A model generated the notes under the pieces. The model was given only the letters and a program-made list of their open reading frames with translations. It did no database searches and was not told the DNA's origin. DNA of 64,000 nt from an uncultured Gemmatimonadaceae bacterium (GTDB taxonomy: Bacteria > Gemmatimonadota > Gemmatimonadetes > Gemmatimonadales > Gemmatimonadaceae), in contig CAVXGK010000002.1 in NCBI GenBank assembly GCA_963761305.1, positions 1,248,001-1,312,000 of the forward strand, written 5' to 3'. The position numbers and the translations under genes are program-made. Shown piece after piece: positions 51-20,951 of the stretch (position 1 is its first letter; the number at the start of each line of letters is the position of its first letter).

Positions 51-1025
51 TTAAGATGGGGGCGCCGACGACGCTTCGCTCCCAGAATCCGGCGGCTCGT
101 CCCCACGGAGCAGGGCCTCCAGTGCGCTCCGTTGGGCCGCGATTTCGGCCGCGCGGTCGGCGGCGATCAGCGCGGCCATGCGACGACGGTCGCGCTGCAC
201 GCGCGCCAGGTACAACGGGAGAATGATCAACAGCAGCAACAGTCCGCCCAGCGTGACGTCGCCGATCAATGCTAGGCCGCCGTAGCGCCGGCGCGTCTGT
301 CGCTGCCACCGCTGCTCGAACTCCGCCATCGTGATGCCGTACGTCGAGCGCACGGCGCGCTCCATCGTGCCCTGCGTCCGCCACGCCTCGAAGAACCTCG
401 ACAATCCGTGCGCCGTGTCGAGCGATGCCAATTGATCCACCGCGCCGTACGCGAGCGCGTAGGCGGTCTGCGCGGTCGTCGCTCCCTCGGTGAACTCGCT
501 GTCGAGCTGATCGAAGGTCGGTGCTCCCTTGATCGCCAGCGCTACGTTCGCCGCGAGCGCGTCGTCACGACCCGTCTCGCGCGCCGCGAAGGTCGCATAG
601 CCCTCGTCGAACCAGCGCGGCGGGAGGTCGTCGAGGTATTCGTGCAGCGCGAGGTGGGCCAGCTCGTGGCGAAGGACGGCGCGCGGATCGCCGGCGTCCG
701 CTCCCGCCGAGCGTCCCTGCATCACGATCCGGCGCGAATCGGGAAAGGCCACGGCTGCGCCCCACTCCGGAGCGCGCGGGCCCACCCACTCGCGAAACCG
801 GCGCTTGTCGGGCGCGATCGCCAACAACACGCGCTGCGTCGGCCGCGGCAATCCTGGAAACGTGTCGTTCGCGATGGAGAGCGACACGAGCGACTGCGCG
901 AGCGTCTGCTCGCTCGGATAGAACACCGCGGTGAATCGGCCCCGGTCCAGACGGAGCGGCGCGTCCTGCGACGTCGCGCGCGACGGCCAGCCGATTCCAC
1001 AGAGCGCGATCGCCGCCACGGCCAT
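51..1025 (-). CDS. Peptidase MA-family (gluzincin-like) exported protein with C-terminal membrane anchor
   Basis: HELAH zinc motif followed by WFDEG; signal-like N-terminus MAVAAIALCGIG; hydrophobic GGLLLLLIILPLYLA near the C-terminus. Start placed at ATG 1025 (CTG 1043 possible); the ORF-track start at 1169 overlaps the upstream gene. Confidence 0.75.
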   Translation of the reverse strand: MAVAAIALCGIGWPSRATSQDAPLRLDRGRFTAVFYPSEQTLAQSLVSLSIANDTFPGLPRPTQRVLLAIAPDKRRFREWVGPRAPEWGAAVAFPDSRRIVMQGRSAGADAGDPRAVLRHELAHLALHEYLDDLPPRWFDEGYATFAARETGRDDALAANVALAIKGAPTFDQLDSEFTEGATTAQTAYALAYGAVDQLASLDTAHGLSRFFEAWRTQGTMERAVRSTYGITMAEFEQRWQRQTRRRYGGLALIGDVTLGGLLLLLIILPLYLARVQRDRRRMAALIAADRAAEIAAQRSALEALLRGDEPPDSGSEASSAPPS

Positions 1026-1039
1026 CGCGCGGCGAAGGT

Positions 1040-1915
1040 TCAGGGCACGCCGCCCGCGGCCACCGTTTCGATGGCCTCCGCGCACCGCTTGCCCCACGGA
1101 TTGAACTTGTTCGCGGAGAATCCGGCCTGCCACGTCGACGTCGCCTCGTGACGCTGCGAGTTGAACCAATACGCGCGGCCGAGCTCGAAGTACGCTTCGA
1201 TCAGGTTCGGCCCCAACGCGACGCTCTTCTGGAAAAACGTCTGCGCGTCCTCGAACATCTCCCGCTCGAGGTAGACCAGTCCGAGATAGAAGTGCGCGTA
1301 CAGCGTCGCCTTCTTGTCGTTGTCGAGCCTGATCGCCCGCGACAGATGCTCGATCGCCTCTCCAAAGATACGCTTCTTCAAGCAGATGTAGCCGAGGTTC
1401 ACGCGGGCCAGCGCGTTCATCGGCTCGCGCACGAGCACGCGCTGAAAGCTGACCAACGCGTCGTCGTAGCGGTCCTGCAGCATGAGCGACCAGCCGAGCA
1501 GCGACTCCGCCTGCGCATCACCCGGCGACAGTTCGAGCGCCTTCTTCAGGAACGTGTCGGCTTCGGCGTATTCGCCCGCCGAGATCCTGTGCCACCCCTT
1601 CTCGATGTACGTCGACGCGCCGAGATGGTCGCTGTGCACGGCGCTGTGCACGGCGTCGTGCACGGCGGGCTTGGCGCCGTCGAGATGCGGCGCAACGCCG
1701 CCGCTGTTGGCGCGAACGCCCTTCCACTTCTCGACGAGCGCGAGGACCTCCTCGCGCAGCACACCGAGCTGCTTGTACTCGGCGTCCACTGTCTTGAACA
1801 GCACGCCGATGTCGGCCTTGAGCGCGTCGAGCTTGGCGCCCGCGTCCGGTTCGTCGAGTCGCGCGTCGAGCAGCGCGCGCCGCGCGCGCAACCCGTCCAA
1901 CGATGCCTCCGCCAC
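1040..1915 (-). CDS. Tetratricopeptide repeat protein with N-terminal coiled coil
   Basis: Several TPR units (AESLLGWSLM, ARVNLGYICL, AHFYLGLVYL, AYFELGRAYW); GTG start with GGGAG upstream. Confidence 0.85.
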   Translation of the reverse strand: MAEASLDGLRARRALLDARLDEPDAGAKLDALKADIGVLFKTVDAEYKQLGVLREEVLALVEKWKGVRANSGGVAPHLDGAKPAVHDAVHSAVHSDHLGASTYIEKGWHRISAGEYAEADTFLKKALELSPGDAQAESLLGWSLMLQDRYDDALVSFQRVLVREPMNALARVNLGYICLKKRIFGEAIEHLSRAIRLDNDKKATLYAHFYLGLVYLEREMFEDAQTFFQKSVALGPNLIEAYFELGRAYWFNSQRHEATSTWQAGFSANKFNPWGKRCAEAIETVAAGGVP

Positions 1916-1918
1916 CGA

Positions 1919-2418
1919 CTACGCTCCCCCCCCCCGTCCTGGTCCCAGCTCTGCGCGCCGTGCTCGACGACGATGCGGTCCGCGTTCCACATGACGCGGT
2001 CCACGTCGAGCACGACGACGAGCTGGTCGCGCACTTTCGTCACGGCGCGGAGCACGTCCGTCGCCACGCCCTTGAACAGCGCGGGCGGCGGCGACATCGA
2101 CTCCGCGGGGACGACGGCGACTTCGAGCACCGCGTCGACGATCGCGCCGACGCGCCCGCTGCTCGTGTTGAGGACCAGCGTGCGCGTCTCTGGCGTGATC
2201 GTCGTTTCGGCCAGCTCGATGCGGCGGCGCAGGTCGATCACCGGAATCACTTCGCCGCGATGCTCGGTCACGCCCTCGACCCACTTTGGCACGTCGGGAA
2301 CGCTGTTGGGCGGCGAGTAGCGCAGCACGCGGTCGACCGACAGCACGTCGGCGGCGAACAAATCCACGCCGAGCTGAAAGACGACCAGTTTGACGCCGGC
2401 GACTTTGTCGTTCTTCAT
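1919..2418 (-). CDS. cheW: CheW chemotaxis coupling protein; apparent frameshift in a 3' G10 tract (as sequenced the frame runs to 1546)
   Basis: CheW pattern LVVFQLG...VPDVPKWVEGVTEHRGEVIPVIDL...VGAIVDAV...VVLDVDRV. A TAG at 1919-1921, just before the next gene, is reached only with G8 or G11. Confidence 0.85.
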
Positions 2419-2885
2419 GGTTTCTCTCCTGTCGGCGTGGCCAGCACGCCGTCGAGCAACGCGTCCACGTCGACCACCCCGATCAGCTCCGAGCCGCGCC
2501 GCACGAGTCCGACCAGCGCGCCGTCCGCGCCGTCGCTCCCGGGCACGCCGCGCAGCTCCGATTCAGCGATCGAGAGCGCGTCGTAGACGTCGTCGACGGC
2601 AAGACCGATGCGGTGTGCGCCGCCGCGCCGGGTGAACACCAGCGTCGCGCCCGGATTCACGCGCGCGTCCGCGGTTCCGCTCCGCGCTCCGAGCAGCGCG
2701 AGCGGGTCGTAGACCGAAAGCAGGTCGCCGCGCAGCGTCGTGACGCCGCGCACGTGTTCCGGAGCATCGGGCATTCGCTGGAGCTCGGGCGATTCGATCA
2801 CCTCATCGACCGCGGCAAGCGAGACCGCGAACCGCTCGCCGCCAACCCGGAAGACGAGAACCCGCGCTACGCCGTCACGGAACAC
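2415..2885 (-). CDS. cheW: CheW chemotaxis coupling protein
   Basis: VLVFRVGGERFA...MPDAPEHVRGVTTLRGDLLSVYD...IGLAVDDV; ATGA overlap with the next cheW. Confidence 0.88.
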   Translation of the reverse strand: MFRDGVARVLVFRVGGERFAVSLAAVDEVIESPELQRMPDAPEHVRGVTTLRGDLLSVYDPLALLGARSGTADARVNPGATLVFTRRGGAHRIGLAVDDVYDALSIAESELRGVPGSDGADGALVGLVRRGSELIGVVDVDALLDGVLATPTGEKP

Positions 2886-3945
2886 GGTGCACCTCCGTCG
2901 CCATCATTTGCCCGATGAGTCGGCCGATGTCGGGCAGCGGCGCGACGCAGTCGGCGCCGGCCGCCTGGAGCGCGGCGCTCGGCATGCCGAAGATCGTCGC
3001 CGTCTCGCGATCCTGAATCACCGCGCGTCCGCCGACGGCGCGAATCGCGCGCGTTCCGTCGGCGCCGTCGCGACCCATGCCGGTGAGCACCACCGCGAGC
3101 GTCGACGATCCGAACACGCGCGCCGCCGACTGAAAGAGCATGTCCGCGGCCGGCCGCACGCCCCAGACGGGCGGAAGCTCGTCGAGCGTAATCACCGGTC
3201 CGTCGCCATCGTCGCGCACCGTCATGTGGCGGCCGCCCGGCGCGACGTACACGCGTCCATGCACGACCGGTTCGTCCTGTTCGGCTTCCGCGATGCGAAC
3301 GGCGCTCATCGAGTCGAGCCGCTGCGCGAAACTCTTGGTGAATCCGCGCGGCATGTGCTGCACGACGAGCACCGCGGCGGGGAGCGAACGATGCAGGTGC
3401 GGCACGATCGCGGCCAGCGCGCGCGGTCCGCCGGTGGACGCCGCGATGACGACCGCGCTCGACGCCGCCGCGCCGACGAGCGTCGGCCGCTCGACGACGA
3501 TCGGCGTGCGCCGCTGCAGCTGGCGGAGTCCGGCCGGATTCGCCGCGATGGCGGCGCGCAACGCCTCGAGCAATCGCGGCGAGATCGTCGCGAGGTCGAG
3601 ACTGATCTTTCCCGACGGCTTGAGGACGAAGTCGACGGCGCCCAGCTCCAACGCGCGCAGTGTGGCCGCCTGGCCGCCGCTCGTCGTGCCGGCGCTCAAC
3701 ATCACGACCGGGCGCGGCGACTCGCTCATGATGTAGCCGAGCGCGGTCAGCCCGTCGAGCTCCGGCATGTCCACGTCGAGCGTGACGACGTCGGGATTGA
3801 GGGCGTGCACGAGGCCCAGCGCTTCGTACCCGTTGCGCGCGACGCCGGCAACCTCGAACTCGCCCGAGGCCTCGAGGATTTGCGAGATCAGCCGCCGCAT
3901 GAAGGCGCTGTCGTCGACGACGAGGACGCGGCGTTTAGAGGACAC
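2875..3945 (-). CDS. cheB: CheB response regulator protein-glutamate methylesterase
   Basis: Receiver domain (VVDDSAFMR, VTLDVDMP, FVLKP) plus methylesterase triad motifs ASTGG, VQHMP, GMGRDG. Confidence 0.96.
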   Translation of the reverse strand: MSSKRRVLVVDDSAFMRRLISQILEASGEFEVAGVARNGYEALGLVHALNPDVVTLDVDMPELDGLTALGYIMSESPRPVVMLSAGTTSGGQAATLRALELGAVDFVLKPSGKISLDLATISPRLLEALRAAIAANPAGLRQLQRRTPIVVERPTLVGAAASSAVVIAASTGGPRALAAIVPHLHRSLPAAVLVVQHMPRGFTKSFAQRLDSMSAVRIAEAEQDEPVVHGRVYVAPGGRHMTVRDDGDGPVITLDELPPVWGVRPAADMLFQSAARVFGSSTLAVVLTGMGRDGADGTRAIRAVGGRAVIQDRETATIFGMPSAALQAAGADCVAPLPDIGRLIGQMMATEVHRVP

Positions 3946-4432
3946 GCGACCCCTTTCGCACGGAGCGAACCTCGACGCGACCGTCCGTCAGGTAGAAATA
4001 GACGCTGCGGCCGTAGTCGCTCCCCGTATCTTCGCCGACGAGCTCGATGCGGGATTTCGCGAGCGCCGAGCGCACCGCGGCGACGTTGCGCTCGCCGATG
4101 TTGATGCCGCCCACCGTGGCGAAGTTGCTGCCGAACATGCTCGCGCCGCCGGCGATCTTGGCGCGGATACGATTCGGAACGGCGCCGAGCTTTTTCATCT
4201 GCTCCAGCACGAGCGGGACCGCCGTCGCCGGGAACTTGGCCGGATTCGAGCGGTCGCGCGACATCGACTCGCTCGGCAAGAGCACGTGCGCGAGTCCGCC
4301 GACGCGCGCCACCGAGTCGTACAGCACGATCGCCACGCAGGAGCCGAGGCCGACGGTCGTGATCAGACCGTCCGACGCCACCGCATAGTCGGCGACCTTG
4401 ACCCGGACTTCCGCGAAGGAATCGGCGATCAT
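3935..4432 (-). CDS. cheD: CheD chemoreceptor glutamine deamidase
   Basis: TVGLGSCVAIVLYD...GGLAHVLLP (catalytic Cys/His), AKIAGGASMF, IGERN, EDTG. ATG 4432 overlaps the cheR stop (ATGA). Confidence 0.94.
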   Translation of the reverse strand: MIADSFAEVRVKVADYAVASDGLITTVGLGSCVAIVLYDSVARVGGLAHVLLPSESMSRDRSNPAKFPATAVPLVLEQMKKLGAVPNRIRAKIAGGASMFGSNFATVGGINIGERNVAAVRSALAKSRIELVGEDTGSDYGRSVYFYLTDGRVEVRSVRKGSRVL

Positions 4433-5250
4433 CGGCGGCGGAACACCCGTTCGCGCGCGTCCACCGCGGCGAACTTCGCGCGCGACGGGCCCAGCACGGT
4501 TTCGACCTTGCCGAGCACCAGGAAGCCGCCCGGCGCCAGCGCGTCGTGGAACGCGTCGAAGAGACGAATCTGCGTGTCGCGATCGAAGTAGATGAGCACG
4601 TTGCGGCACGCGATCAGGTGCAGCGGTCCGCGCGGCGCCGGAGCGGCCAGCAGATCACGATTCTCGAATCGCACCATCGTTCGCACGGTCGGCGACACGG
4701 TCAACGGCGGCGTCGCCGAGAAGTAGCGCGCCCGCAGGTCGTCCGGCGTGTCGGCGAAGTCGGACTCGGAGAACTGGCCGTGCCGCGCGGCGATCAGCGA
4801 TCGGCGGTCGATGTCGGTCCCGAGCACGTCGACGCGGCTCAAGCGCGACAACTCGCGCCGCTGTTCGGCGTGGCGATGAAAGAGGATCGCGAGCGAGTAG
4901 GGCTCGTGGCCGGAGGAACAGCCGGCGCTCCAGACGCGAATCGTCGAGAGCGGCGCCGACCACAGCGTCGGCACGACGTGCGTCGCCATCGCCCGATAGA
5001 CGTCCCAGTTCCGGAAGAGCTTCGTGACGTTGATCGTGAGAACATCGAGCAGGCGCTCGTACTCCGACGCGTCGCTGTCGAGCACGCGCGAGTACTCGCC
5101 GTAGGTGTTCACGCCGCGCGCGCGCATGCGCACGGCGATGCGCCGCTGCAGGCACTTCTCCTTGTAGCTCGCGCAGCCGAAGCCGCGCTCGACGGAGATC
5201 TTGCGTGTCAGCGCGAGAAAATCGCCGGCCCCCGAGGCTCGGTCGACCAT
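4429..5250 (-). CDS. cheR: CheR chemoreceptor methyltransferase
   Basis: TINVTKLFRN, WSAGCSSGHEPYS, GTDID, CRNVLIYF. ATG 5250 in a TGATG overlap. Confidence 0.95.
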   Translation of the reverse strand: MVDRASGAGDFLALTRKISVERGFGCASYKEKCLQRRIAVRMRARGVNTYGEYSRVLDSDASEYERLLDVLTINVTKLFRNWDVYRAMATHVVPTLWSAPLSTIRVWSAGCSSGHEPYSLAILFHRHAEQRRELSRLSRVDVLGTDIDRRSLIAARHGQFSESDFADTPDDLRARYFSATPPLTVSPTVRTMVRFENRDLLAAPAPRGPLHLIACRNVLIYFDRDTQIRLFDAFHDALAPGGFLVLGKVETVLGPSRAKFAAVDARERVFRRR

Positions 5251-6869
5251 CAGTAGGCCTGCCGAACGGACTCGAGGTTCGATCGAACGATGGCGTTGTC
5301 GGGGTCGAGCTCGAGCGCCCGCTCCCAACATCGCAACGCTTCGTCCCGTTCCTGCCGCCGCAGGCGGATGTTCCCGAGCTTGAGATACGTGTCCGGACCG
5401 ATCTCCGGATTGGCGCGCGTGGCCCGCGCGTAGGCTTCGAGCGCTTCGTCGTACCGCGCGGCGCGGTACCGGAGGTCGCCGATGTTCTTGTGCAGATGCG
5501 CGACGCCGGCGTCCTCGTGGAGCCCGCGCTCGGCCGTCGCGAGCGCGGCGTCGTACTCGCCCAATCGCTCCTGGACCGCGGCGAGGTTGTTGTGCAGCGT
5601 GGCGGCGTGTGGATACGCCGTTACGCCGTCAGTGAGGATCGACGCGGCGCGCGGCGCATCACCGACGAGCGCCGCGGCGAGGGCCGCGAAGTGGAACCAG
5701 GCGGCCGTGGGCGGCTTCCGCCCGAAGAGCCCGCGCGCGCCGGCGAGCGCGGCGTCGGCGGCCGAGAGGTCGCCGGTGAGAAGACACACGACGCCGAGCG
5801 ACGTTTGAATGCGCGCGTCCTTGCCGCCGCCGCGCGCGATGGCGTCGTTCAGCGCGGCGCGCGCTTCGTCGTAGCGGTGCTGCTGCTCGAGCACGAACGC
5901 GAGGTTGTGGAACACCGCCGGCTTCGCGTCCAGGCGCGTGACGCATTCCTTGAACGCGGCCGTCGCTTCGTCCCACTTCGCCTGGCGGGCGAGCACGAGC
6001 CCGACGTAGTAGCGCGCCGCCGCGTCGCCGTCGCGCAGCTCGATCACGCGGCGGAACTCGCGCAGCGACTCGTCGAACATCCCCGTCTTGAAGAACGCGA
6101 TCCCGAGGTTGCGATGCTCCTCGGCGCGTCCGTGCGCCGCGACGGCCGGAGCGGGCGCCGTCTTGCCGATGCGATGGATGAAGCTCGCGTTCACCAGCCC
6201 GAGCAGCGCCTTGCCGACCTCGAATTCCACGAGCCCCGACGCGTCGATGATCCCCTGCACGTCGCGCATGCCGTCGACCAGCTCGAGGACGCTCGTCTGT
6301 TCCTCGGTCAACTCGGCGTCGCTCGTCAGGACGCGGTTGCGATTGATCTCGAATACGAGATCGAAGCTTGGGATTTTTTTTTCGACGAGGCTCCACTCGT
6401 CGACCCGGCGCGCCCCCTCGAGCAGCAGCGACTCGGGGGTGATCGACACGATGTAGTCCTGTCCTTCGGGCACGACGTCGGCCTCGAAGTTGAACGTCCC
6501 TTGGTGCCAGGTGAACAGGAAGTAGACGGCCTCGCGAATCTGCACGTCCACCGCCACGCGCAACTGGTCGGGCGAGACGATGCCCTGCTCCACGAGGATC
6601 CGCCCGAGCGGCGTGTCGAGGCGCTTGGCCTGCGCGTCGAGCGCGGCGTCGAGCTGCGCCTGCGTGACGCCCCCGCTCTTCACGAGACGGTCGCCGAGCC
6701 GGTCGCGGCGATTCACGACCGACGCGTAGCAGATCCGCCCCTTGTCGAAGTAGATATAGCCGAAGCTGGCCCGGTGCGTGATGCTCAGGCAGCCGGTCTT
6801 CTTGCCCATCGCGAGGAGTTGGAGAACGTCGGGGAGGCTCGCCTCCTTGAGGTTGCCGCGGATCGCCAT
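5250..6869 (-). CDS. DUF4388 (PatA N-terminal-like) domain protein with MshEN-like insert and C-terminal TPR repeats
   Basis: N-terminus MAIRGNLKEASLPDVLQLL...KTGCL, WHQGTFNF, LLLEGARRVDEW typical of DUF4388; RLGDRLVKSG...LGRILVEQG insert; many TPRs. Confidence 0.85.
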   Translation of the reverse strand: MAIRGNLKEASLPDVLQLLAMGKKTGCLSITHRASFGYIYFDKGRICYASVVNRRDRLGDRLVKSGGVTQAQLDAALDAQAKRLDTPLGRILVEQGIVSPDQLRVAVDVQIREAVYFLFTWHQGTFNFEADVVPEGQDYIVSITPESLLLEGARRVDEWSLVEKKIPSFDLVFEINRNRVLTSDAELTEEQTSVLELVDGMRDVQGIIDASGLVEFEVGKALLGLVNASFIHRIGKTAPAPAVAAHGRAEEHRNLGIAFFKTGMFDESLREFRRVIELRDGDAAARYYVGLVLARQAKWDEATAAFKECVTRLDAKPAVFHNLAFVLEQQHRYDEARAALNDAIARGGGKDARIQTSLGVVCLLTGDLSAADAALAGARGLFGRKPPTAAWFHFAALAAALVGDAPRAASILTDGVTAYPHAATLHNNLAAVQERLGEYDAALATAERGLHEDAGVAHLHKNIGDLRYRAARYDEALEAYARATRANPEIGPDTYLKLGNIRLRRQERDEALRCWERALELDPDNAIVRSNLESVRQAY

Positions 6870-6903: not shown

Positions 6904-8826
6904 TCATGGCGCGTCCTCGATGAGACGCGCGGCGGCGTCGGGCCACTGCCAGATGACCTTCTCGCCGTCGAGGAAGAACGGATCGGTCGCCGCCTTGAGC
7001 GCCGCGGCGCGCGCCGGCTCGGTCTCGTCCGGCTCGAGCGCCGCGCGAACGAAGCCGATGGTCACCGGCACCGCCGCCACTTCGGCCGAGGCGACGATCC
7101 GGTTGGCGACGCCGATGATCTCGCGGACGCTCGCGACCGCGCGCTCGGCGAGGTAGCCGAGAATCTCGGCGTTCGGCTCGACGCCGAGGTCGCGCAGGTA
7201 GCGCGCGAAGAGACGCTCGCGTAGCGAGCGGTCGGGTGCCTGCATCGGCACGACCAAGCCGCCCTCGAACCGCGAGCGGAGGCGATCCTCGAGGCCGGAG
7301 AGCTCGCGCGGCGGGCGGTCGCTCGCCAGGACGAGCTGCTTGCCGTCGGCGTACAACGAATTGAAGACGTGAAAGAGCTCTTCCTGCGTGCGCTCCTTGC
7401 CGGCGACGAATTGCACGTCGTCGAGCAGCAGCGCCGACGCGTCGCGATAGCGGGCGCGCCAGCGGTCCACCGTGCCTTCCTGCAGCGCGGCGATCAACTC
7501 GTCGATGAAGAGCTGCGCCGGCACGCAGGCGACCGATCCGCGCCCGGCCGTCGCCGGCACGAGTCCGTGCCCGATCGCGTTCAACAAGTGCGTCTTGCCG
7601 ACGCCGCTCGGCCCGTGAATGAACAGCGGGTTGTAGCGCGTGCCCGGCGCCGACACGACGGCGTCGGCGGCGCGCACCGCCATCTGATTGCTGCCGCCGA
7701 CCTCGAATCCGGAGCGCGTGAACGCCGACGACGGTCCCGCCGGCGGCGACGCGACGCGCAGCGCGCGCTCGAGCACCTGCTCCGCTTCGTCGACGCGATC
7801 GGGATCGCGGAACGCGGGATGGATCGCCATCGACGCGTCGGCGCGCGACGTCTGCCGTTCCAGATCGCGCAGCCGGTTCACGCGCCCTTCGAACTCGCGC
7901 AGGAACGACTCGACGCCGTTCGCCGGCGCGTTCTCCCTCATGGCGCGCTCGAGGCTCGTCGTGCGATAGCCTTCGGCGCCCCAGTACGCGATCGCGTCGG
8001 AGATCCGTTGTCGCCACTGCTCGACGTGCTGCGCCACCGCCGACGCGATGTCGGTGAGGAAGCTCGCGAACTCGCCGCTGGGTCGCGGCGGCGTCACGCG
8101 GCGCCGCTTCTCGGCCAGGTCGCCGAGGACGCTCATCACGTTGTCGGGCGACACCTGCTCGCCGCCGAGCGCCTGGAACGCAATCAGGCGGGTGAGCGCC
8201 CCCTGCAGCTCGCGGACGTTGTCGAACTCGAGCGCGCCGACTTCGTCGATCACGCCGGCGCGGAACCGCATGCCGCGCTCCTCGCACTTGGCTTTGAGGA
8301 TCGCCATGCGCGTTTCATAATCGGGCGCGCCGATGTCGACGATCAGGCCGCCGGCGAGACGCGAGACGAGGCGCTCGTCGACGTCGGCGATGTCGGCGGC
8401 CGGGCGGTCGCTCGTCATCACGATCTGGCGGCCGTCGCCTTGCAGCGCGTTGAAGATCCGCAGCAGCTCGCTCTGCGTTTCCTTCCGCGCCGTGAGGAAT
8501 TGAATGTCATCGATCAGCAGCAGGCCGACGCCGAGGTAGCGCGCCTTGAACGCCTCGGCCGCGCCCTCGGCGATGGCCGCATGCATCTCGCCGACGAACT
8601 CGTCGAGCGTGACGGCGGCGACGGACAGCGGCTGCCGCCGCTGTGCGACGTGATTGCCGATCGCGCTCATCAGGTGCGTCTTGCCGAGCCCCGACCCGCT
8701 GTACATGAAGAGCGGGTTGTACGCCGTGCCCGGCGCCTCGGCCACCGCGTGCGCCGCGGCGACGGCGAGGCGGTTGGCCGAGCCGACGATGAAGTTGTCG
8801 AAGCGGAGCTTCGGATCGAGCTGCAT
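6904..8826 (-). CDS. Tandem DnaA-like AAA+ protein (two DnaA domain III modules, no domain I or IV)
   Basis: Two complete sets of YNPLF / Walker A (GSGLGKT, GPSGVGKT) / Walker B (LLIDD, LLLDD) / sensor I SDR / Arg finger (RLVSR, RLRSR) / sensor II (NVRELQG, SVREIIG). Confidence 0.9.
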   Translation of the reverse strand: MQLDPKLRFDNFIVGSANRLAVAAAHAVAEAPGTAYNPLFMYSGSGLGKTHLMSAIGNHVAQRRQPLSVAAVTLDEFVGEMHAAIAEGAAEAFKARYLGVGLLLIDDIQFLTARKETQSELLRIFNALQGDGRQIVMTSDRPAADIADVDERLVSRLAGGLIVDIGAPDYETRMAILKAKCEERGMRFRAGVIDEVGALEFDNVRELQGALTRLIAFQALGGEQVSPDNVMSVLGDLAEKRRRVTPPRPSGEFASFLTDIASAVAQHVEQWRQRISDAIAYWGAEGYRTTSLERAMRENAPANGVESFLREFEGRVNRLRDLERQTSRADASMAIHPAFRDPDRVDEAEQVLERALRVASPPAGPSSAFTRSGFEVGGSNQMAVRAADAVVSAPGTRYNPLFIHGPSGVGKTHLLNAIGHGLVPATAGRGSVACVPAQLFIDELIAALQEGTVDRWRARYRDASALLLDDVQFVAGKERTQEELFHVFNSLYADGKQLVLASDRPPRELSGLEDRLRSRFEGGLVVPMQAPDRSLRERLFARYLRDLGVEPNAEILGYLAERAVASVREIIGVANRIVASAEVAAVPVTIGFVRAALEPDETEPARAAALKAATDPFFLDGEKVIWQWPDAAARLIEDAP

Positions 8827-8839
8827 GATCGACCCGCCG

Positions 8840-9469
8840 CTATCCGGCGCGCGCCGTCACGCGCGGCACCGACGATGGCGTGCCGGCGCTCAGGCGTCTG
8901 AGCACGAGCTCGGAGATCGCGCGCAGCGTCTCGAAGACGCCCGGGCCGTGCAACGCATCGGCCGAAAACTCCGGCACGTCGCGGAAGTTGAGCGCCTCGG
9001 ACAGCGTGGCCGGATCGAGGATCAACTCGCTCGGCAGGTCCTGCTTGTTGTACTGGATGACCAGCGGCACGGCGCGCGCGTCGACGCCCTGGTCGCCGAG
9101 ATTCGCGTGGAGGTCCTGGAAGCTCTCGACGTTTTCATCGAGCTGGCGGCCCTGGCTGTCGGCGACGAAGACGACACCGTCGGCGCCCTGGAGCACGAGC
9201 CTGCGCGTCGTCTGGTAGTAGACCTGGCCGGGGACGGTGTAGAGCTGGAACCGGGTGGTGAAGCCGGAAATGGTGCCGAGATCAAGCGGGAGAAAATCGA
9301 AGAAGAGCGTGCGGTCGGTCTGCGTCGCCAACGACACCATCCGGCCGCGGCGGTCGGCGGGCACCTGGCTGTAGATGTAGTGCAAGTTCGTCGTCTTTCC
9401 GGACCGGCCCGGTCCGTAGTAGACGATCTTGCACGTGATCTCTCTGGTGGCGTAGTTGACGAGGGACAC
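8840..9469 (-). CDS. mglA: MglA-family small Ras-like GTPase
   Basis: [47 protein letters not shown] match the MglA signature. Confidence 0.95.
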
Positions 9470-9589: not shown

Positions 9590-10081
9590 TCATCGTCCCT
9601 CCCAGCGGTCGGACTGGCGAAAGAGCGCGGACAGATTCCGGTTGAGGTCGTCCTCGAAGTTGCCGGCCAGCGCGACCGCGGCCGGCGGCTCCGCGGTGCG
9701 GGCCGCCTCGGCCAGCTCGCGCTCGAGTTCCGTGAAGTAGATGCGGATCAAACCGAGCGACGTCTGGTCGTCGAACACCGTGAAACAGATGTACGCGCCG
9801 CGCGACGTCTGGAGCGGCGCCAGATACATCTGCTTCTCCGGGCCCGCGTAGTGCAGCCCGGCGAACGCGCGGCCGTCGACCTGGCGGCCAAGTTCTCCCG
9901 CCGTCGCGTGCACCGCGGACGCCAGCGCGCACGCCGTCATCACGTCCACTTCGCGCGTGAACCCGGCCTGCGCCAAGACCTGCCCCGTCGGATGGAGCAG
10001 CAGCGCGAGACGCGCGCGCGCGTCGTCGACGAACCGCCGCAGCGGCGCTTCGACCCACGGCTCGACCGCGGCGATCTTCAT
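9590..10081 (-). CDS. mglB: MglB-like roadblock/LC7 protein
   Basis: Roadblock pattern ALLLHPTGQVLA...ALASAVHATAGEL...VFDDQTSLGLIR; acidic C-terminal helix FEDDLNRNLSALF; directly upstream of mglA; ATG 10081 in ATGA overlap. Confidence 0.75.
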   Translation of the reverse strand: MKIAAVEPWVEAPLRRFVDDARARLALLLHPTGQVLAQAGFTREVDVMTACALASAVHATAGELGRQVDGRAFAGLHYAGPEKQMYLAPLQTSRGAYICFTVFDDQTSLGLIRIYFTELERELAEAARTAEPPAAVALAGNFEDDLNRNLSALFRQSDRWEGR

Positions 10082-10428
10082 GCGAGCATCTCCAGCGCCT
10101 TGAACAGCTCCACCCGAATCAGCCCGACGTTCGCCGCGGGGTCGGCAACGGTCACGATCACCAGGTCGTTCCCTCCGCCCGCCACGCAAATGCAACCGCG
10201 CTCCGCGTCGAGCTGCAGGAACGTCACCGCTCCGAGCCGCGCCGCCTGCGCCGACAACCGCGCCTTGCGATACACGGACGCGGCGAGCGCCGCGACACGC
10301 TCGCCGTCCTGGCCAAAACGGAGACTGGAATCGATGACGAGCCCGTCACTCTCGGAGACGATCAAGCTCGCCCGCACGCCACGCTGGCGAGTCAGCACAT
10401 CGAGCACGGGCCGCATGGACGTGCTCAC
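10078..10428 (-). CDS. Roadblock/LC7 domain protein
   Basis: GVRASLIVSESDGLVI...VAALAAS...ANVGLIRVEL; GTG 10428 in GTGA overlap. Confidence 0.85.
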   Translation of the reverse strand: MSTSMRPVLDVLTRQRGVRASLIVSESDGLVIDSSLRFGQDGERVAALAASVYRKARLSAQAARLGAVTFLQLDAERGCICVAGGGNDLVIVTVADPAANVGLIRVELFKALEMLA

Positions 10429-11288
10429 GGCGCGCCCGCGCCGTCGATTCGCCCGTCGCGAAGCCACGCCGAGGCCCGCGCGGCGCACCGGTCGAGCAGG
10501 CGCCGCAGGAGCCCGAGCGGCGTGACCTTCGACGCCGCGACGACGAGGAGACCGCCGTCGTCGCTCCGCGTCATCGCCACGACGCTCCCACGCGTCTCGA
10601 ACGTGATCGACTGCCACTCGCCGACGTCCAGATACTTCGTCGATCGCTGCACTTCGTCGGAGATTCCGCTCAACTGTGCGCCGACGTCCTGCGACAAATC
10701 GGCGCCGTTGGCGTCGACGTACACGCCGCCCAGCACCAAGCCGCTGGCGTCGAGCAGGAGCGCCGTCTGCCCCTCCTCGGTCAGCAGGCTCGCGAAGAGA
10801 CGCCGCGGATCGTTCGACGACGCGGGTGGCGCGAACGCGCTCGTTTGCGGAGAAGGCACCGCCTCATCGGGCACAGCCACGTGGGTGCCAGACGCCCGCC
10901 GCACCGTGCGCAGCGCGCCCGCGACCGAGGCCCCCCCGCCGCCGCTCGCCGCGGCGCCGGTCAAATACCGCTCGGCGTCGTCGACGCGACCTTCCTGAAA
11001 GCTGAGATATCCGAGTCCCTTCATCGCCCCCGCGTGATCGGGAACGATTCGAAGCACGGCGTTCCATTCGTCGCGGGCGCGCGCGAGGTCGCCGCGATCG
11101 ACCGCGACGCGCGCGAGTAAGTCGTGCGCGTCCGCGTTGTGCGGGTGCCGCTCGAGCCCGCGCAGCGCGACTTTGCTCGCGAGCTCGAACTGTCGCTGCC
11201 GGCGCAGCGCGTCGCCAAGCTGAAGGAACACCAGGCTCCCCGGCTCGCGCGCGAGCTCTTCGCTCCAGCGGCGGATGTCGTCAACCAT
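10425..11288 (-). CDS. TPR + roadblock/LC7 fusion protein
   Basis: N-terminal TPRs (FLQLGDALRR, AHDLLARV, AMKGLGYL); C-terminal roadblock (ALLLDASGLVL...VGAQLSGI...TPLGLLRR). Start at ATG 11288. Confidence 0.8.
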   Translation of the reverse strand: MVDDIRRWSEELAREPGSLVFLQLGDALRRQRQFELASKVALRGLERHPHNADAHDLLARVAVDRGDLARARDEWNAVLRIVPDHAGAMKGLGYLSFQEGRVDDAERYLTGAAASGGGGASVAGALRTVRRASGTHVAVPDEAVPSPQTSAFAPPASSNDPRRLFASLLTEEGQTALLLDASGLVLGGVYVDANGADLSQDVGAQLSGISDEVQRSTKYLDVGEWQSITFETRGSVVAMTRSDDGGLLVVAASKVTPLGLLRRLLDRCAARASAWLRDGRIDGAGAP

Positions 11289-12225
11289 TGGCGTGCACCT
11301 CGAGCACCCGCTCGAGTCGCGCGAGCGCGTCGAGCGCGTCGCGCGCTTCGAGGGCGACGGTGCCGGCCGGCTCACGGCGCAGCAGCTGCTCGACCGCGTG
11401 GCGGGCGGCGCTCACGTGTGCGGCGACGCCAGTCGGCGGCGAACCAGTGGGCGACCACGCTCGCGCCCGCGCGACGGCGGATGGTTCGACGTTCTTTCGA
11501 ATCGTGACGACGCCGGTCGTGGCCAGCCCATACGCGATCTTGGCCGTCTCGAACTCGTCGCGGGTCAGCAGCGCGGCGATCGCGCGCAGGTCGCGCTCGC
11601 CGTCGATCATCGTCAGGACCTGCCACTCGTGCGGGAGCAGGTCGAGCGTCGTGCCGCCGTCGTGCTCTTCGCCCATCGGTGCAAGCTCGGGCACGACGTT
11701 CAGGCTCGGCACCACGTCGGCGATGCGCGACCATTCGTCGATGCGCCGCGCGCCTTCCATGAGCAGGGATTCGGTCGAGACGGCGATGCGCGGGTCGCGC
11801 GGCATCTCCTCACGCGCGCGTTCTTCGAACGAGAAAAACCCCTCGCGCCACGACATCAGCTCGAATACCACGCTCTCGATCTGCAACCGCAAGTGCCGCT
11901 CGAGCTCGCGCTGGGTGATCGCCCCGAGGCGAACGAGCGAATCGACGATGGTCCGCGCACCCGCGACCCCATTGCCCTCGGTCGACGCGTGCGCGCGATC
12001 GAGATCGGCTTGCGTGATCCGCCCCGCCTCCAGCAATACGAGCTCCGTCGGCACGCTCTTGCTGCGGATCGACGCGTGCACGACGCGGCCGCCGTCGAAG
12101 TGGACGACGCCCTCGTCCTCGCGCAGCTTCGACGATACGCACAGGAGTCCCGTCTTCCGGCTCAGGTCGAGCAGCTGGAAGACGTCGTGGATGCCGAGCT
12201 CGCGAAGCGGACCTTCGATCGCCAT
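11281..12225 (-). CDS. DUF4388 domain protein
   Basis: MAIEGPLRELGIHDVFQLL...KTGLL, WREGFFSF, LLMEGARRIDEW; paralogue of 5250-6869. Confidence 0.85.
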   Translation of the reverse strand: MAIEGPLRELGIHDVFQLLDLSRKTGLLCVSSKLREDEGVVHFDGGRVVHASIRSKSVPTELVLLEAGRITQADLDRAHASTEGNGVAGARTIVDSLVRLGAITQRELERHLRLQIESVVFELMSWREGFFSFEERAREEMPRDPRIAVSTESLLMEGARRIDEWSRIADVVPSLNVVPELAPMGEEHDGGTTLDLLPHEWQVLTMIDGERDLRAIAALLTRDEFETAKIAYGLATTGVVTIRKNVEPSAVARARAWSPTGSPPTGVAAHVSAARHAVEQLLRREPAGTVALEARDALDALARLERVLEVHANG

Positions 12226-12227
12226 GG

Positions 12228-14987
12228 TCAGCCCGTTCGCAGCGTGAGAATGTGCTGCAGCTCGGAGGCGCTGCGCAGATCGCGACGCGCGCGCCGAGCG
12301 AACGACGATGCGGGATCGAGCGCGATCACGCGGCGCCAGCGTTCGGCCGCCTCGCGGAAGCGGTGCTGTTCCGCCAGCAACGCGCCCTCGAAGTACAGCG
12401 CGCCGACGTTCCCCGGATCGAACCGCAGCACCCGCGCGAACGCATGGCTCGCGTCGCGCCGGCGATCGAGCTCGATCAGCGTCTCACCGAGCGCGATGAG
12501 CGCGTCGAAGTTGTACGGATCGCGCTCCAGCATTTCGATCAGCAGCGGCATGGCGTCGCTCGGGCGACTCAGCCGGCGTCGAAGCGCCGCGAGCGCGAGC
12601 GTCGCTTCGGCGTAGGTCGGCACCGCGTCGAGCGCCGCGACCAACTCGTGCTCGGCTTCGCGATCGCGGCCTTGCGACTGCAACAGATCCGCGAGCCGGA
12701 AGCGCACGACGGCGAAATCCTCGTCCACCTCGAGCGCGAGCCGGTACATCTCGATCGCGCGGTCGATGTCGCCGATCGACTGCGCGATGTCGCCCGTACG
12801 CAGCAACACGTCGGCCCGCCGCGGCGAGATCCGCCGCGCACGGTTGAGCAGCTCGAGCGCCGCCACCGGATCGCCGGAATCCGCGCACGCCTCCGACGCG
12901 AGCATCAGCGCGTCGACGTCGTTCGCGTCCCGCGCCACCAACAGCTGCGCGATCGGACGCGCCTCGGCCCCGCGCCCCAGTCGCAGGAGCGCCATCGCCT
13001 CGCCGGCAAGCGCCTGCGGACGATCCGGAACGATCGCCAGCGCAGCGCGAAAGCGCTCCAGCGCTTCGCCGAACAAGCCCTGTTTCGCGAAGATCTCGCC
13101 GAGGATCGTCATCCCCATGGCGCGGTCCTCGCCGCGCGCCAGCGCGCGCGCGACCTCGGCCGACGCCCGGTCGAAGTAGCCCTTCGACAAGTAGTCCGCC
13201 GCCATCGCGAACGGCGACCGGTCGCTCGCGCGCCGCGCACGCGGCCGCTCGGACTCTTCTTCGCTCGATGGTTTCGCATCCGGCGCCGCTGTGGTGGCCG
13301 GCGCCGACTCGGCCGGCGCGGCGGGCGCCAGCTCCGTGAACAGCGTGTCGAGAGAGCCGGGATCGAAATCGAAGTCCTCGACGACCGCGTCCTCGTGCGC
13401 GCCGCCGAGGTCGGGCGGCACCGTGAGGTCGGGGTCTTCGTACTCGACGTCCATCGCCAACTCGAACTTCTGCGCCACGTAGTACGGTTCCAGCTCGAGC
13501 GCGCGCTTGGTTTCGCGCAGCGCGCCCTCGAAGTCGCCGAGATTCGAGAGCGTGAAGCTCATGTTGTAGTGCGCTTCGGCGAAGTCGGGTCGCGCCTGGA
13601 TCGCGCGCGCGAAGGCGCCGCGGGCGTCGTCGTACCTGTGGAGCTCGGCGAGCACGAGGCCGACGCCGTTCCATGCTACCGGATGCTCGGCCGCCGAGCG
13701 CAACACGCGGCGATACGACTCGAGCGCGTGCTGGAATCGCTTGGCGCGGCTCATGAGCAGCGCCAGGTTGAGACGCGCCTTGACGAATTCGGGCCGATGC
13801 TCGAGCGCCGCGTTGAACGCGGCGAGCGAGTCCTCCGATTTTCCGCTGTGGTAGAGCGCCACGCCGAGGTTGTTCCGTGCGATCGCGTACGACGGCTCGG
13901 CGTCCAGCGCGCGCCGATAGCTCGACTCGGCGTCGGCGAAGCGTCCTTCCTGGTGCATCGCCACGCCGCGCTCGTTCCACAGCTTGGGGCTGTGCGGCTG
14001 GCGGCGCAGCAGATCGTCGTACAGCCCGATCGCCTCGCCGGGTTGGCGCAACAGCAGATGCACTTCGGCCATCGCCTGTAACACGAGGTCGCGGTCTTCG
14101 CCCCGGTCGAGCGCGACGCCGTACTCGCGCATCGCTTCGGCGTAGTAGCCCTTGCTGCGGAACGCGAGGCCCAGGTTGTAGTGCGCGAGCTGTCCGTCGA
14201 CCGACACCTGCAGCTCTCGCTTCGGCTGGCCGTTCGCCGCGTCGCGGCCCCGCTGTTGCTCGAGCGACAGATTCGCGTGCGCGCGCGACAGCGACGGATT
14301 CAGCTTGATGGCGCGGCGCGTGGCCGCCTGCGCGTCCTCGTGGCGTCCGATGTCGCCGAGGACGAAGCCCATCAGGTACAGGGCGTCGTGGTTCTCCGGA
14401 TTCAACGCGATCGCGCGCTCGAGTGCGCGCAACGCGTCGTCGTTCAGGCCGCGGTGATAGAGGATCTCGCCGAGCGTGAAGTGCAGCAGCGAGCTGTCCG
14501 GATCGCGGGCCAGCGCGCGTTCGATGCATTCCTGCGCGCGCTCCATGTCGCCCGAGTGCTTCTCGGCGAGCGCGAGCTGCAGCAGGGCCGCGACGTCGTT
14601 CGGCGCGTACTCGAGGAGGGCGCGGAACTCGTTCGCTGCGTCGTCCTGCTTGCCGAGCAGCGAGAACGTGCGGCCCAACTCCCAGCGCGCTTCGCGGTCG
14701 TCGGGCCGGGCCCGGAGACGCTCGCGCAGCTCGGGCACCCGTGTGTCGTAGTAGCCGGTGTTGAAGTACGCGATCTCGAGGTTGCGCTGCGCGACCTGCA
14801 TCGTGTGGTCGAGCTCGAGCGCCTTCATGAAGGCGGCGACCGCCTCCTGATACAGCCCCTTGTTGTAGTAGAGAACGCCGAGGTTGTTGTGCGCGCCGGC
14901 GTCCGACGGATCGATCCGCCGGGCGAAGGAGCGAAGGACCTCGCGGTCCCGCTCCGACGTCAGTGGGGCCGGCGGGATCATGATCAC
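12228..14987 (-). CDS. Large TPR-repeat protein
   Basis: Many TPRs (AHNNLGVLYY, AHYNLGLAF, ARNNLGVAL, AWNGVGLVL) in two blocks separated by an acidic/Pro-Ala linker; GTGA overlap with the cheC stop. Confidence 0.9.
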   Translation of the reverse strand: MIMIPPAPLTSERDREVLRSFARRIDPSDAGAHNNLGVLYYNKGLYQEAVAAFMKALELDHTMQVAQRNLEIAYFNTGYYDTRVPELRERLRARPDDREARWELGRTFSLLGKQDDAANEFRALLEYAPNDVAALLQLALAEKHSGDMERAQECIERALARDPDSSLLHFTLGEILYHRGLNDDALRALERAIALNPENHDALYLMGFVLGDIGRHEDAQAATRRAIKLNPSLSRAHANLSLEQQRGRDAANGQPKRELQVSVDGQLAHYNLGLAFRSKGYYAEAMREYGVALDRGEDRDLVLQAMAEVHLLLRQPGEAIGLYDDLLRRQPHSPKLWNERGVAMHQEGRFADAESSYRRALDAEPSYAIARNNLGVALYHSGKSEDSLAAFNAALEHRPEFVKARLNLALLMSRAKRFQHALESYRRVLRSAAEHPVAWNGVGLVLAELHRYDDARGAFARAIQARPDFAEAHYNMSFTLSNLGDFEGALRETKRALELEPYYVAQKFELAMDVEYEDPDLTVPPDLGGAHEDAVVEDFDFDPGSLDTLFTELAPAAPAESAPATTAAPDAKPSSEEESERPRARRASDRSPFAMAADYLSKGYFDRASAEVARALARGEDRAMGMTILGEIFAKQGLFGEALERFRAALAIVPDRPQALAGEAMALLRLGRGAEARPIAQLLVARDANDVDALMLASEACADSGDPVAALELLNRARRISPRRADVLLRTGDIAQSIGDIDRAIEMYRLALEVDEDFAVVRFRLADLLQSQGRDREAEHELVAALDAVPTYAEATLALAALRRRLSRPSDAMPLLIEMLERDPYNFDALIALGETLIELDRRRDASHAFARVLRFDPGNVGALYFEGALLAEQHRFREAAERWRRVIALDPASSFARRARRDLRSASELQHILTLRTG

Positions 14988-15601
14988 GCGACGTGGATCG
15001 CCTTGAGGATGGCGCCGAGCGACGCCGTGTCGGGAAGCAGCAGGAAGAAGCCGCGCAGCTTCTCGTCGGACTGGTTCAGCACGAAGTCGCTCTCGACGCA
15101 GAAGACGAAGTCACGGTCCCCGCCGAACTGGAGGTACGCCGTCGTGAGCACGGCGTCGGACATGTCGATCGCCAGCGCCGGCGGCGACGGAATGAGCATC
15201 ATGCCCATGAAGTCGCTCAGCGCGTTCATGTAGGCGGAGCTGAGGATGTTGCCCGCTTCCTTGATCGCCGACTGCTGCATGTCGGAGAAGTCGTCGCTGG
15301 GCTCGCGGCGGTGCAGCAGCAGCTCGGCGAGCCGCATCGCGGTGCGCCGCGGGAACACGAGCAGCGTGCGGCCCGTGAGATCGCCGAGCATGTGCATCAG
15401 CACCGCGGCCACCGGCTCGTCCGGCGTCGTGATGTGCGGCGGCACCTCTTCCAGGCGCGCGACGCTGATTTTCGGCACGCTGATCATGATCGTCTCGCCG
15501 ATCATCTGCGACAGCGCCGTCGCCGCGTGGCCGGCGCCGATGTTGGCCACCTCGCGGAGCGCGTCGAGCTGCAGCGCTTTCAACGAAAGAAGATCTTCCA
15601 T
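14984..15601 (-). CDS. cheC: CheC CheY-P phosphatase
   Basis: Two E-x2-N active-site motifs (DALREVANIG, SAIKEAGNIL); AGGA SD upstream. Confidence 0.93.
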   Translation of the reverse strand: MEDLLSLKALQLDALREVANIGAGHAATALSQMIGETIMISVPKISVARLEEVPPHITTPDEPVAAVLMHMLGDLTGRTLLVFPRRTAMRLAELLLHRREPSDDFSDMQQSAIKEAGNILSSAYMNALSDFMGMMLIPSPPALAIDMSDAVLTTAYLQFGGDRDFVFCVESDFVLNQSDEKLRGFFLLLPDTASLGAILKAIHVA

Positions 15602-15610
15602 ATCAATCCT

Positions 15611-17623: not shown

Positions 17624-17650
17624 GGCGCTTGGGTCGCACGCGGACCGTGC

Positions 17651-18013
17651 TCACCCGAGCACGCGCTGCACCGCCTCGAGGACGCGACTGGGTTGGAACG
17701 GCTTGACGACGAAGTCCTTCGCGCCGGCTTGAATCGCTTCGACGACGAGCGCCTGCTGCCCCATGGCGCTGCACATGAGGATTTTCGCGCCCGGGTCGAA
17801 CTTGCAGATCTCGCGCACGGCATCGATGCCGCCCATGTCGGGCATCACGATGTCCATGGTCACGAGATCCGGCCGCAGCTCCCGGTACTTCTCTACCGCT
17901 TGAACGCCCGTCTCGGCCTCGCCGACGATCTCGAACCCGGCTTGGGTGAGAATGTCGCCTACCATCGTGCGCATGAAGATGGCGTCGTCGCAGACCAGTA
18001 CTGTGTGACTCAC
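17651..18013 (-). CDS. cheY: CheY response regulator (Bacillus/Thermotoga-like)
   Basis: Single receiver domain: CDDAIFMR, TMDIVMP, CSAMGQQ, FVVKPF; GGAGG SD. Confidence 0.95.
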   Translation of the reverse strand: MSHTVLVCDDAIFMRTMVGDILTQAGFEIVGEAETGVQAVEKYRELRPDLVTMDIVMPDMGGIDAVREICKFDPGAKILMCSAMGQQALVVEAIQAGAKDFVVKPFQPSRVLEAVQRVLG

Positions 18014-18033
18014 GGGAACATGCCTCCAAAGAC

Positions 18034-18477
18034 CTAGGACAGCAGGACTTGCCGGATGAGAGCGGCGAGATCCAACACGACCACCGGTGCACCGTCGAGC
18101 ATCGCCACACCACGCACGAGATCCCCAGCCGCTTCCGTGGCGCCCGAGCCATCGATCTCGAGCTGCCGCACGTCGGCGACCTCGTCTACCACCACCCCGG
18201 CCAAGCGGTCGCGGTGGCGGACGAGAAGAATGGATCCCTCCGCGGCGGGCTCGGCTGACGGATCGAGCCGGACCCCCAGGTCTAGTATCGTCACGATCGT
18301 GCCGCGGACGTTGAGCAGACCGCGCACGAACGCGGGAGCTCCTGGGAGTCGGGTGATCGCTCCCATTGGGATGAGCTCTCTGACGTCTTCTCCGTCGGCC
18401 GCAAAGACCGTTTTCCCCGCGCGGAACATCAGCGCGGAGGTCAACGTGCCATCAGGGGTCGACGCGATAGAAGTCAA
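18034..18477 (-). CDS. cheW: CheW chemotaxis coupling protein
   Basis: ITRLPGAPAFVRGLLNVRGTIVTILDL...GVVVDEV; start uncertain (TTG 18477 overlaps the rluD end). Confidence 0.88.
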   Translation of the reverse strand: MTSIASTPDGTLTSALMFRAGKTVFAADGEDVRELIPMGAITRLPGAPAFVRGLLNVRGTIVTILDLGVRLDPSAEPAAEGSILLVRHRDRLAGVVVDEVADVRQLEIDGSGATEAAGDLVRGVAMLDGAPVVVLDLAALIRQVLLS

Positions 18478-19980: not shown

Positions 19981-19996
19981 GTCGGGCGTTTCGCGC

Positions 19997-20548: not shown

Positions 20549-20951
20549 CTTCCTCGCGCTGCTTGCAGTTGATGCAGTAACGGGCATGCGGGAGTGCGTC
20601 GAGACGATCGTACGCAATCTCGTTGCCGCACTGGTGGCACTTCCCGAAGTTGTCCGGATCGCGATACAGCCGCCGCAGCGCCTCGTCGATGTGCCACAGG
20701 AACCGGCCTTCCTGGCTGGCGAACAGAAACGCCTTTTCGCGCTCCATGGCGTCGGTGCCCTGGTCGGCCATGTGGAACGAGTAGCTGCTCAGATCGCCGT
20801 CGGCGGACTGTGGCGTCGCGCCGAACGCCTCGTCGGCGCGGCCCAGTTCCTTCAGGACGCGCTTCCGCTCGTCGAGCAGACGCTTCTCAAAATGCTGAAG
20901 CATCTTCTTGCTCAGTCCCTTGACCTTTTTCGCGCTGTTCGCGGTTGGCAT
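20535..20951 (-). CDS. TraR/DksA-family C4 zinc-finger transcription factor
   Basis: Coiled coil with HMADQGTD tip; CHQC...RLDALP...CINC zinc finger; start at ATG 20951. Confidence 0.92.
   Translation of the reverse strand: MPTANSAKKVKGLSKKMLQHFEKRLLDERKRVLKELGRADEAFGATPQSADGDLSSYSFHMADQGTDAMEREKAFLFASQEGRFLWHIDEALRRLYRDPDNFGKCHQCGNEIAYDRLDALPHARYCINCKQREEDAKK

Follow-up and report, generated by a model that had tools for sequence, protein, structure and literature searches.

Introduction

All the initiator-clade ATPases that we know of (DnaA, Hda, DnaC/DnaI and IstB) act on DNA transactions. DnaA (PF00308, TIGR00362; PDB 8bv3, 8btg, 2z4r, 3r8f) polymerises head to tail through its domain III, and roles of residues of the E. 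coli Val211, Arg227 and Arg245 type are described in the same source (PMC5742627); ssDNA-binding roles of I190, K222 and T225 of B. subtilis DnaA are reported in 10.1101/2022.03.18.484894. Hda and HdaA are DnaA-type AAA+ proteins without domain IV and with conserved Arg fingers, and E. coli Hda carries the clamp motif QLSLPL. MshE/PilB-type ATPases are controlled by c-di-GMP. In Myxococcus xanthus, MglA-GTP acts on PilB through the TPR protein SgmX (PMC7519303), and PATAN binds PilB/PilC in Synechocystis (10.1101/2021.06.11.447907); these descriptions, as far as their text is accessible, contain no DnaA-type ATPase.

Gemmatimonadota is among the commonest phyla in soil, and motility control in it is little studied. 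Gemmatimonadetes MglA genes have been noted near PATAN genes, and in a 2014 survey the gene order for Gemmatimonas reads PATAN>MglA>-PATAN>, the gene in between carrying no label (PMC4316618). Here we analyse such a neighbourhood in the window (the whole stretch of DNA under study, 64,000 nt), where a gene between mglA and a PATAN gene encodes two DnaA-type ATPase modules in tandem. This protein is a real, conserved and apparently undescribed variant of the initiator-clade ATPase; no description of it was found in the literature searched, most subscription papers lying outside the reach of that search. If the reading that we prefer is true, a DnaA core would work in signalling, switching together with PATAN, TPR, c-di-GMP and MglA components, a new job for the initiator fold.

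A tandem of DnaA ATPase modules without a DNA-binding domain

The gene and its parts are the following:

6904..8826, (-) strand: tandem DnaA-domain-III ATPase gene, 640 aa (ORF call, Pfam, half-vs-half alignment, AlphaFold and Foldseek)
8110..8826, (-) strand: module 1 (aa 1-239), conserved catalytic AAA+ (residue alignment)
8017..8073, (-) strand: EF helix (aa 252-270), predicted docking motif, kept in mini-proteins (low pLDDT alone)
7732..8073, (-) strand: helical linker domain (aa 252-365), family marker (profile search, hhalign, fold model)
7027..7731, (-) strand: module 2 (aa 366-600), DnaA-type AAA+ (residue alignment)
6907..6993, (-) strand: C-terminal W-P tail (aa 612-640), predicted TPR-docking peptide, the most conserved element

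A Pfam scan of the 640-aa protein gave two PF00308 (Bac_DnaA) stretches and no match to DnaA_N or Bac_DnaA_C (PF08299) at E ≤ 0.01; the same library does detect PF08299 in P0189, a tandem that retains domain IV. The two halves align with 41% identity over 206 aa (E 1e-51). Domain III begins at residue 3, and no N-terminal domain can be hidden upstream because the open frame ahead of the ATG is only 10 codons long (650 aa in all). In an AlphaFold model built on a 95-row alignment (pLDDT 88, pTM 0.48) the individual domains are confident and the relative placement of the two modules is not; pLDDT is low at residues 247-267 and over most of 613-640. The top Foldseek match of this model is domain III of B. 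subtilis DnaA (rmsd 1.7 Å, 236 columns).

The canonical DnaA of the genome has 461 aa and is encoded beside an RNase P-like gene on the same contig, 1.9 Mb away; each half of the tandem is 38-42% identical to it. Apart from these two genes the genome gave no DnaA/Hda-type match, and no match to a DnaA box was found in the 4 kb around the tandem gene.

The protein descends from an old duplication of the DnaA ATPase domain and has no DNA-binding domain, and by its sequence it is neither DnaA nor Hda. With DnaA it shares the initiator-clade AAA+ fold and all catalytic motifs (38-44% identity of the modules; rmsd 1.7 Å to 8bv3). It differs in having two modules, its own repeat and its own tail, and in lacking domains I, II and IV and, in module 1, the ssDNA/AID-1 residues; moreover, its modules form separate clades, and the gene is dispensable (linker in 201/301 genomes) and is not at the origin. 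Compared with Hda it is longer (640 against 233 aa), with a complete Walker A and a fixed TPR partner, and it falls below the TIGR03420 cut-off (176.9 <194.8), each half scoring 83-93 bits, and far below the cut-offs of other Hda models. An N-terminal Hda-type clamp motif occurs in 0/95 homologues; loose matches are present in 6, none of them before position 99. On the other hand, the protein scores 519.7 in NCBIfam against a TIGR00362 cut-off of 343.9, and databases therefore name it DnaA, a label that may lead to wrong origin calls and wrong counts of marker genes.

The gene is not an assembly artefact: the best 120 of 7,998 database matches were all full length, at 71-93% identity. A preliminary description of this DNA had already read it as two domain III modules with intact catalytic motifs, no domain I or IV, no obvious Hda-type clamp motif, an aromatic C-terminal tail (DPFFLDGEKVIWQWPD, residues 615-630) and little chance of an artefact. 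All of this holds, and the canonical dnaA that it suggested looking for does lie elsewhere; an artefact is excluded also because the linker is found in 201/301 phylum genomes and a tandem exists in TA06, and the proposed origin as an initiator-derived, repurposed ATPase is supported.

Divergence of the two modules

The E. coli residues K178/T179, D235/D236, D269, R281, R285 and R334 are matched in both halves, by K49/T50, D106/D107, D140, R152, R156 and R205 in module 1 and by K411/T412, D469/D470, D503, R515, R519 and R568 in module 2. Conservation was counted over 95 homologues, in an alignment biased toward the family of the window protein. Module 1 is nearly invariant at its catalytic positions (K49 95, D106 94, D107 95, D140 94, R152 91, R156 92, R205 94), and its ssDNA/AID-1 positions are replaced (H82, E116 and L98 in the window protein). 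Among the homologues 74 have His at the equivalent of Val211 and 87 have Glu at that of Arg245; no counterpart of Arg227 is left, and Arg, His or Gln stands in place of Lys243.

Module 2 has kept these ssDNA/AID residues of the E. coli V211/R227/K243/R245 type that module 1 has lost: I445, R461, K477 and R479 are mostly retained among the 95 homologues, and I445, K477 and T480 match B. subtilis I190, K222 and T225. Its catalytic residues are less constant (K411 91, D470 85, D503 70, R504 54, R568 76), and sensor I/II and the lid are eroding or lost in relatives. Both of its Arg fingers, R515 and R519, are kept in 93/95. Loci L116-118 retain both Arg fingers although the site of module 2 is dead there, with its Walker motifs lost. 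From this residue pattern, module 1 looks like a working ATP site without a DNA-binding surface, and module 2 looks like an Arg-finger donor.

The linker repeat and related architectures

Modelled alone, the linker gives a helical domain (pTM 0.74). It is one copy of a repeat of ~98 aa (hhalign against the repeats of long proteins: 98%, E 7e-14), which is present in 6-8 copies in proteins of 1,084-1,420 aa with one DnaA domain III near the C-terminus, followed in most of them by zinc ribbons, and in many copies in repeat-only proteins. A profile made from the long-protein repeats alone selected only tandem ORFs among 14,142. The fold search with the linker returned generic helical bundles and nothing informative (best Z 5.5, rmsd 4.4, 113 aligned), and ESM Atlas gave no usable match for it.

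The long repeat proteins (P0219, P0223, P0235, P0239, P0249, P0271; L156, L157) consist of an unassigned N-terminal domain, 6-8 linker-type repeats and one DnaA domain III, mostly with double zinc ribbons and a lysine tail; their host is possibly archaeal, which is a guess. P0272/P0273 are repeat-only. For genomic context, a pattern scan of metagenomes yielded 2 short contigs; genes for a hydrolase and a DEXH helicase follow downstream, and neither Mgl nor PATAN genes are present. P0190 and P0192 (1,876-1,990 aa) join an MshEN c-di-GMP domain, a DnaA domain III, a long helical region and a second DnaA domain III. From the long repeat proteins and these fusions it follows that several architectures have taken up DnaA domain III without its domain IV. 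Variants of the tandem itself include one with a C-terminal receiver domain (P0185) and one with an unrelated N-terminus (P0238).

Distribution and phylogeny

The linker-alone profile found a match in 201/301 genomes of the phylum, distributed by class as f1 55/70, f2 121/125, f3 3/3, f4 4/6, f5 1/1, f7 12/48 and f8 4/4, with no match in f6 or f9-f12; the 100/301 genomes in which the linker was not found include single-contig ones. The tallies of linker and DUF4388 include four unpublished genomes (G155, G180, G055, G095), all positive, on which no conclusion rests. All 80 genome loci kept from the database matches are titled Gemmatimonadota or 'bacterium', and a profile search of 1.84 billion representatives added more distant tandems, among them a cluster with members that carry the name candidate division TA06. 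In the assemblies of L146, L147, L148, L152 and L144 the tandem is divided between two frames.

A quick tree was built from 119 domain-III sequences (SH-aLRT support only, root not fixed). In it the module 2 sequences of Gemmatimonadota group together (94%), as do those of module 1 (21 rows, 90%), with eroded and single modules in a wider, weaker group. Both groups stand apart from 28 canonical DnaA sequences (92%) and roughly track host families, so the module duplication is old. The phylogeny of the halves proposed in the preliminary description thus separates them from canonical DnaA, but Hda, on a long branch, has no placement.

A TPR gene is the fixed neighbour

The tandem gene lies in a long run of genes on one strand:

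51..5250, (-) strand: downstream part of the run, with cheR, cheD, cheB, two cheW genes, a TPR gene and a peptidase-MA gene (Pfam, synteny)
5250..6869, (-) strand: partner, with PATAN (DUF4388), an MshEN-type c-di-GMP insert and a TPR array (aa 248-539) (Pfam/NCBIfam, synteny)
8840..9469, (-) strand: mglA-type small GTPase gene, the usual upstream neighbour (Pfam, synteny)
9590..11285, (-) strand: two MglB/roadblock genes and a TPR-roadblock gene (Pfam, synteny)
11281..14987, (-) strand: second PATAN protein and a 919-aa TPR protein (Pfam, synteny)
14984..18477, (-) strand: cheC, cheA, cheY and cheW of the only chemosensory system of the genome (Pfam)

MglA, roadblock, TPR, PATAN and chemosensory genes in one operon recall the Myxococcus xanthus MglA/MglB-SgmX-PilB system and the PATAN regulators of Synechocystis, and the genome has pilus ATPases; the 919-aa TPR protein may have an SgmX-like role. 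The MshEN insert of the partner lies at aa ~55-107 (NF053729 53.4 bits, cut-off 38). As in MshE/PilB-type enzymes a c-di-GMP motif is thereby paired with an ATPase, but here the ATPase is a DnaA domain III and not a secretion ATPase, and the two parts are on separate proteins, being fused in P0190/P0192.

The partner follows directly downstream in 129/129 tandem loci. Of the same loci, 121 have mglA and 3 do not, while in 5 the contig starts too late to include it, and three further loci without mglA were seen elsewhere; where it is missing (L116-118, L140, L143, L144, L164/165, L167) the TPR partner stays. The fixed neighbour of the family is the downstream TPR gene, not MglA. The adjacency to MglA pointed out in the preliminary description is therefore correct for this locus, where mglA ends 13 nt upstream of the tandem gene, but it is not obligate. 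In some lineages the chemotaxis genes are lost and the rest is kept (e.g. L039, L040, L042, L043, L045, L048, L075, L120). DUF4388 was found in 201/201 linker-positive genomes and, without the linker, in 15; 85 have neither. The partner was not found at 1e-22 in 19/25 other genomes tested, and one more match, in G002, proved to be a TPR gene unrelated to it.

CheA, CheR, CheC and CheD are encoded nowhere else in the genome than in this operon. Positions 1903-5250 and 14984-18477 of the window, (-) strand, encode a full CheA/W/Y/B/R/C/D set; the operon itself lacks a receptor gene, and two receptors are encoded elsewhere in the genome. FliG was not found in this genome (93% complete), and a flagellar output was set aside on this ground. 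There are three PilT genes and one PilM gene. Since PilT is present in 53/54 genomes with or without the tandem system, pili do not track the tandem gene and are uninformative as a co-occurrence marker. Nine f6/f7 genomes without the system (G056, G080, G098, G059, G062, G069, G077, G078, G121) have at most one PilT, and 8/9 have no GGDEF match.

The tail persists where the ATPase is lost

The W-P tail always stands immediately ahead of the partner gene. A tail of at least 12 bits precedes 139/140 partner starts, the sole miss scoring 10.6 bits, against 0/87 control starts; most of these loci were picked via the tandem, and the 14 picked via the partner have the tail in 14/14. In the monomer model the EF helix and the tail both have pLDDT near or under 50.

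The ATPase part is less constant. Ten of 150 representatives consist of module 1, linker and tail; module 2 is deleted in L137, L138, L141 and L145, and in L139, L142 and L151 it is module 1 that has eroded. All 15 genomes with DUF4388 and without the linker were examined. Ten carry in the slot of the tandem an ORF of 60-72 aa with the EF helix and the W-P tail only, one has a single eroded ATPase with the tail, and three have a tail-ending gene that the profile missed or that is truncated where the contig ends; in the remaining one the partner was not found. At L164/165 the mglA-mglB-PATAN2-TPR block is absent, and mini-protein and partner are still present; the mini-protein of L164 has 60 aa and is encoded at L164:8903-9082. 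The pseudo-dimer, which the preliminary description proposed, is hence not the conserved unit: modules are deleted or eroded in several lineages, and ATPase-free mini-proteins replace it in 10 genomes.

In mini-protein genomes the partner lacks the last TPR(s) in 10/10 and the MshEN insert in 9/10. Nine of these genomes cluster in a single clade (5 of the nine are in the tree, where they have 99% support), with G112 apart, and a single origin of the mini forms is not rejected (p-AU 0.2); we therefore count the mini forms and the co-loss of MshEN as one or two events, not ten. The RluA tree has too little support for a count of the reductions. That the MshEN insert disappeared because c-di-GMP synthesis was lost was rejected, all ten mini genomes having 3-8 GGDEF matches.

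A further form was seen in six f11/f12 genomes examined, in which the second DnaA match is one module with a related tail followed by a TPR-only gene (6/6). This gene aligns in one piece to the TPR part of the partner (103-169 bits); the three f12 genes are reciprocal best matches with it, and the f11 genes are ambiguous by BLAST. Because the tail stands ahead of the partner through the tandem, mini and f11/f12 forms, the invariant unit is the tail plus the TPR array. This natural reduction series, from tandem to single module to 60-aa peptide, points to binding motifs. Part of the conservation of the tail may reflect translational coupling, since its final EE overlaps the GAGGAG ribosome-binding site of the next gene; such coupling does not explain the W-P or EF motifs. 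In L168 the stop codon of the mini-protein gene and the start of the partner are separated by several copies of a short tandem repeat of ~15 nt (L168:9485-9592).

Possible functions of the tandem protein

The reading that we prefer, and to which we give about even credence, is a non-replicative nucleotide switch that docks by two short motifs on the PATAN-MshEN-TPR adaptor, with c-di-GMP as input and the pilus motor as output. Architecture, residue pattern, synteny, reduction series and phylogeny are its observed basis, from which we infer the following steps. The EF helix and the W-P tail, poorly ordered alone, would fold on the TPR partner, a predicted docking that is consistent with their co-retention. 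Module 1 would bind and hydrolyse ATP with the help of an Arg finger supplied in trans, for which module 2 or a second copy would be the simplest source, and module 2 would be mainly a finger donor or spacer. Binding of c-di-GMP to the MshEN insert of the partner, together with its last TPRs, would be coupled to the ATPase state; the MshEN-to-DnaA-domain-III fusions P0190/P0192 count in support of this pairing. The PATAN domain would signal onward to the type IV pilus motor, with MglA/MglB and the chemosensory pathway exerting control above it. This output step rests on analogy with the Myxococcus and Synechocystis systems, and it may not be ancestral, because f11/f12 have no PATAN and Mgl neighbours.

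It is unlikely, in our view, that the protein instead regulates DnaA by lending an Arg finger to DnaA-ATP in the manner of Hda or, as the preliminary description proposed, by capping or co-polymerising with DnaA, with a polar position set through TPR, PATAN and MglA, so that the motility state gates initiation. The fingers R152/R156 and R515/R519 are kept in 91-93/95, and DnaA is a possible target because they persist even where the module 2 site is dead (L116-118). Module 2 also retains the DnaA interface and ssDNA positions (R461, I445, K477, R479), both modules are far closer to DnaA than to Hda, and no other DnaA/Hda-type protein was matched in the genome. Set against this are the missing clamp motif (0/95), the AID-1 and H/B positions lost from module 1, the ten tail-keeping genomes whose ATPase part is gone, the 100/301 genomes, some single-contig, in which no linker was found, and the position of the gene, 1.9 Mb from dnaA and with no DnaA box match in the surrounding 4 kb. 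A bolder version, in which DnaA-domain-III switches older than the Gemmatimonadota/TA06 split are read by c-di-GMP/TPR adaptors and put their Arg finger on DnaA, so that a pilus-polarity circuit (MglA, chemosensory input, c-di-GMP) directly times initiation without Hda or the clamp, is a distinctly long shot.

Quite improbable, too, is a self-assembling scaffold, in which ATP-dependent head-to-tail polymers of domain III, spaced by the repeat, would mark the pole and bring the TPR partner there, with little switching. Conserved Arg fingers on both modules agree with it, as do the linker, which comes from a repeat family forming long rods in related proteins, and the head-to-tail polymers of DnaA domain III itself (PMC5742627). 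Single-module and ATPase-free forms nevertheless persist, and module 1 is without Arg227, a part of the DnaA filament interface.

We consider it very unlikely that the protein handles the ssDNA of pilus-imported DNA in competence through the retained surface of module 2. That surface does include the equivalents of B. subtilis I190, K222 and T225 (10.1101/2022.03.18.484894), and PilT genes are near universal in the sample, but module 2 is the part most often eroded or deleted, and no competence gene was seen in the operon. A decaying paralogue retained only for translational coupling to the next gene, as the several reductions, the frequent overlap of its stop codon with the partner's ATG and the overlap of the EE with the GAGGAG site might suggest, is hardly credible when catalytic residues are kept in 91-95/95, both motifs stay in frame in the mini-proteins and the modules are vertically inherited across classes.

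Other features of the genome

Domain II of canonical DnaA contains QMD[LFM]F in 11/11 sequences of the order of the window (L002:1165-2550, (-) strand, and L169-L178), in 0/15 from f4-f9, f11 and f12, and as QMDLW in one f10 sequence. We take this motif to resemble the beta-clamp-binding consensus; if so, it would let canonical DnaA itself bind the clamp. As a clamp link for the tandem protein it was rejected, being present in mini genomes and absent from the ATPase-bearing f4-f8.

Ahead of the operon, at 18452-20617 of the window, (-) strand, lie two adjacent signal peptidase II genes and rluA, and rluA adjoins the operon even where Mgl and Che genes are lost. At its other end, the TPR gene and the peptidase-MA gene (51-1915, (-) strand) close the operon in most loci; a peptidase-MA gene also follows the TPR partner in the f11 loci L205/L206. 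A second mglA-mglB pair is located at G000:C1:234806-235927 of the same genome, its MglA being 49% identical.
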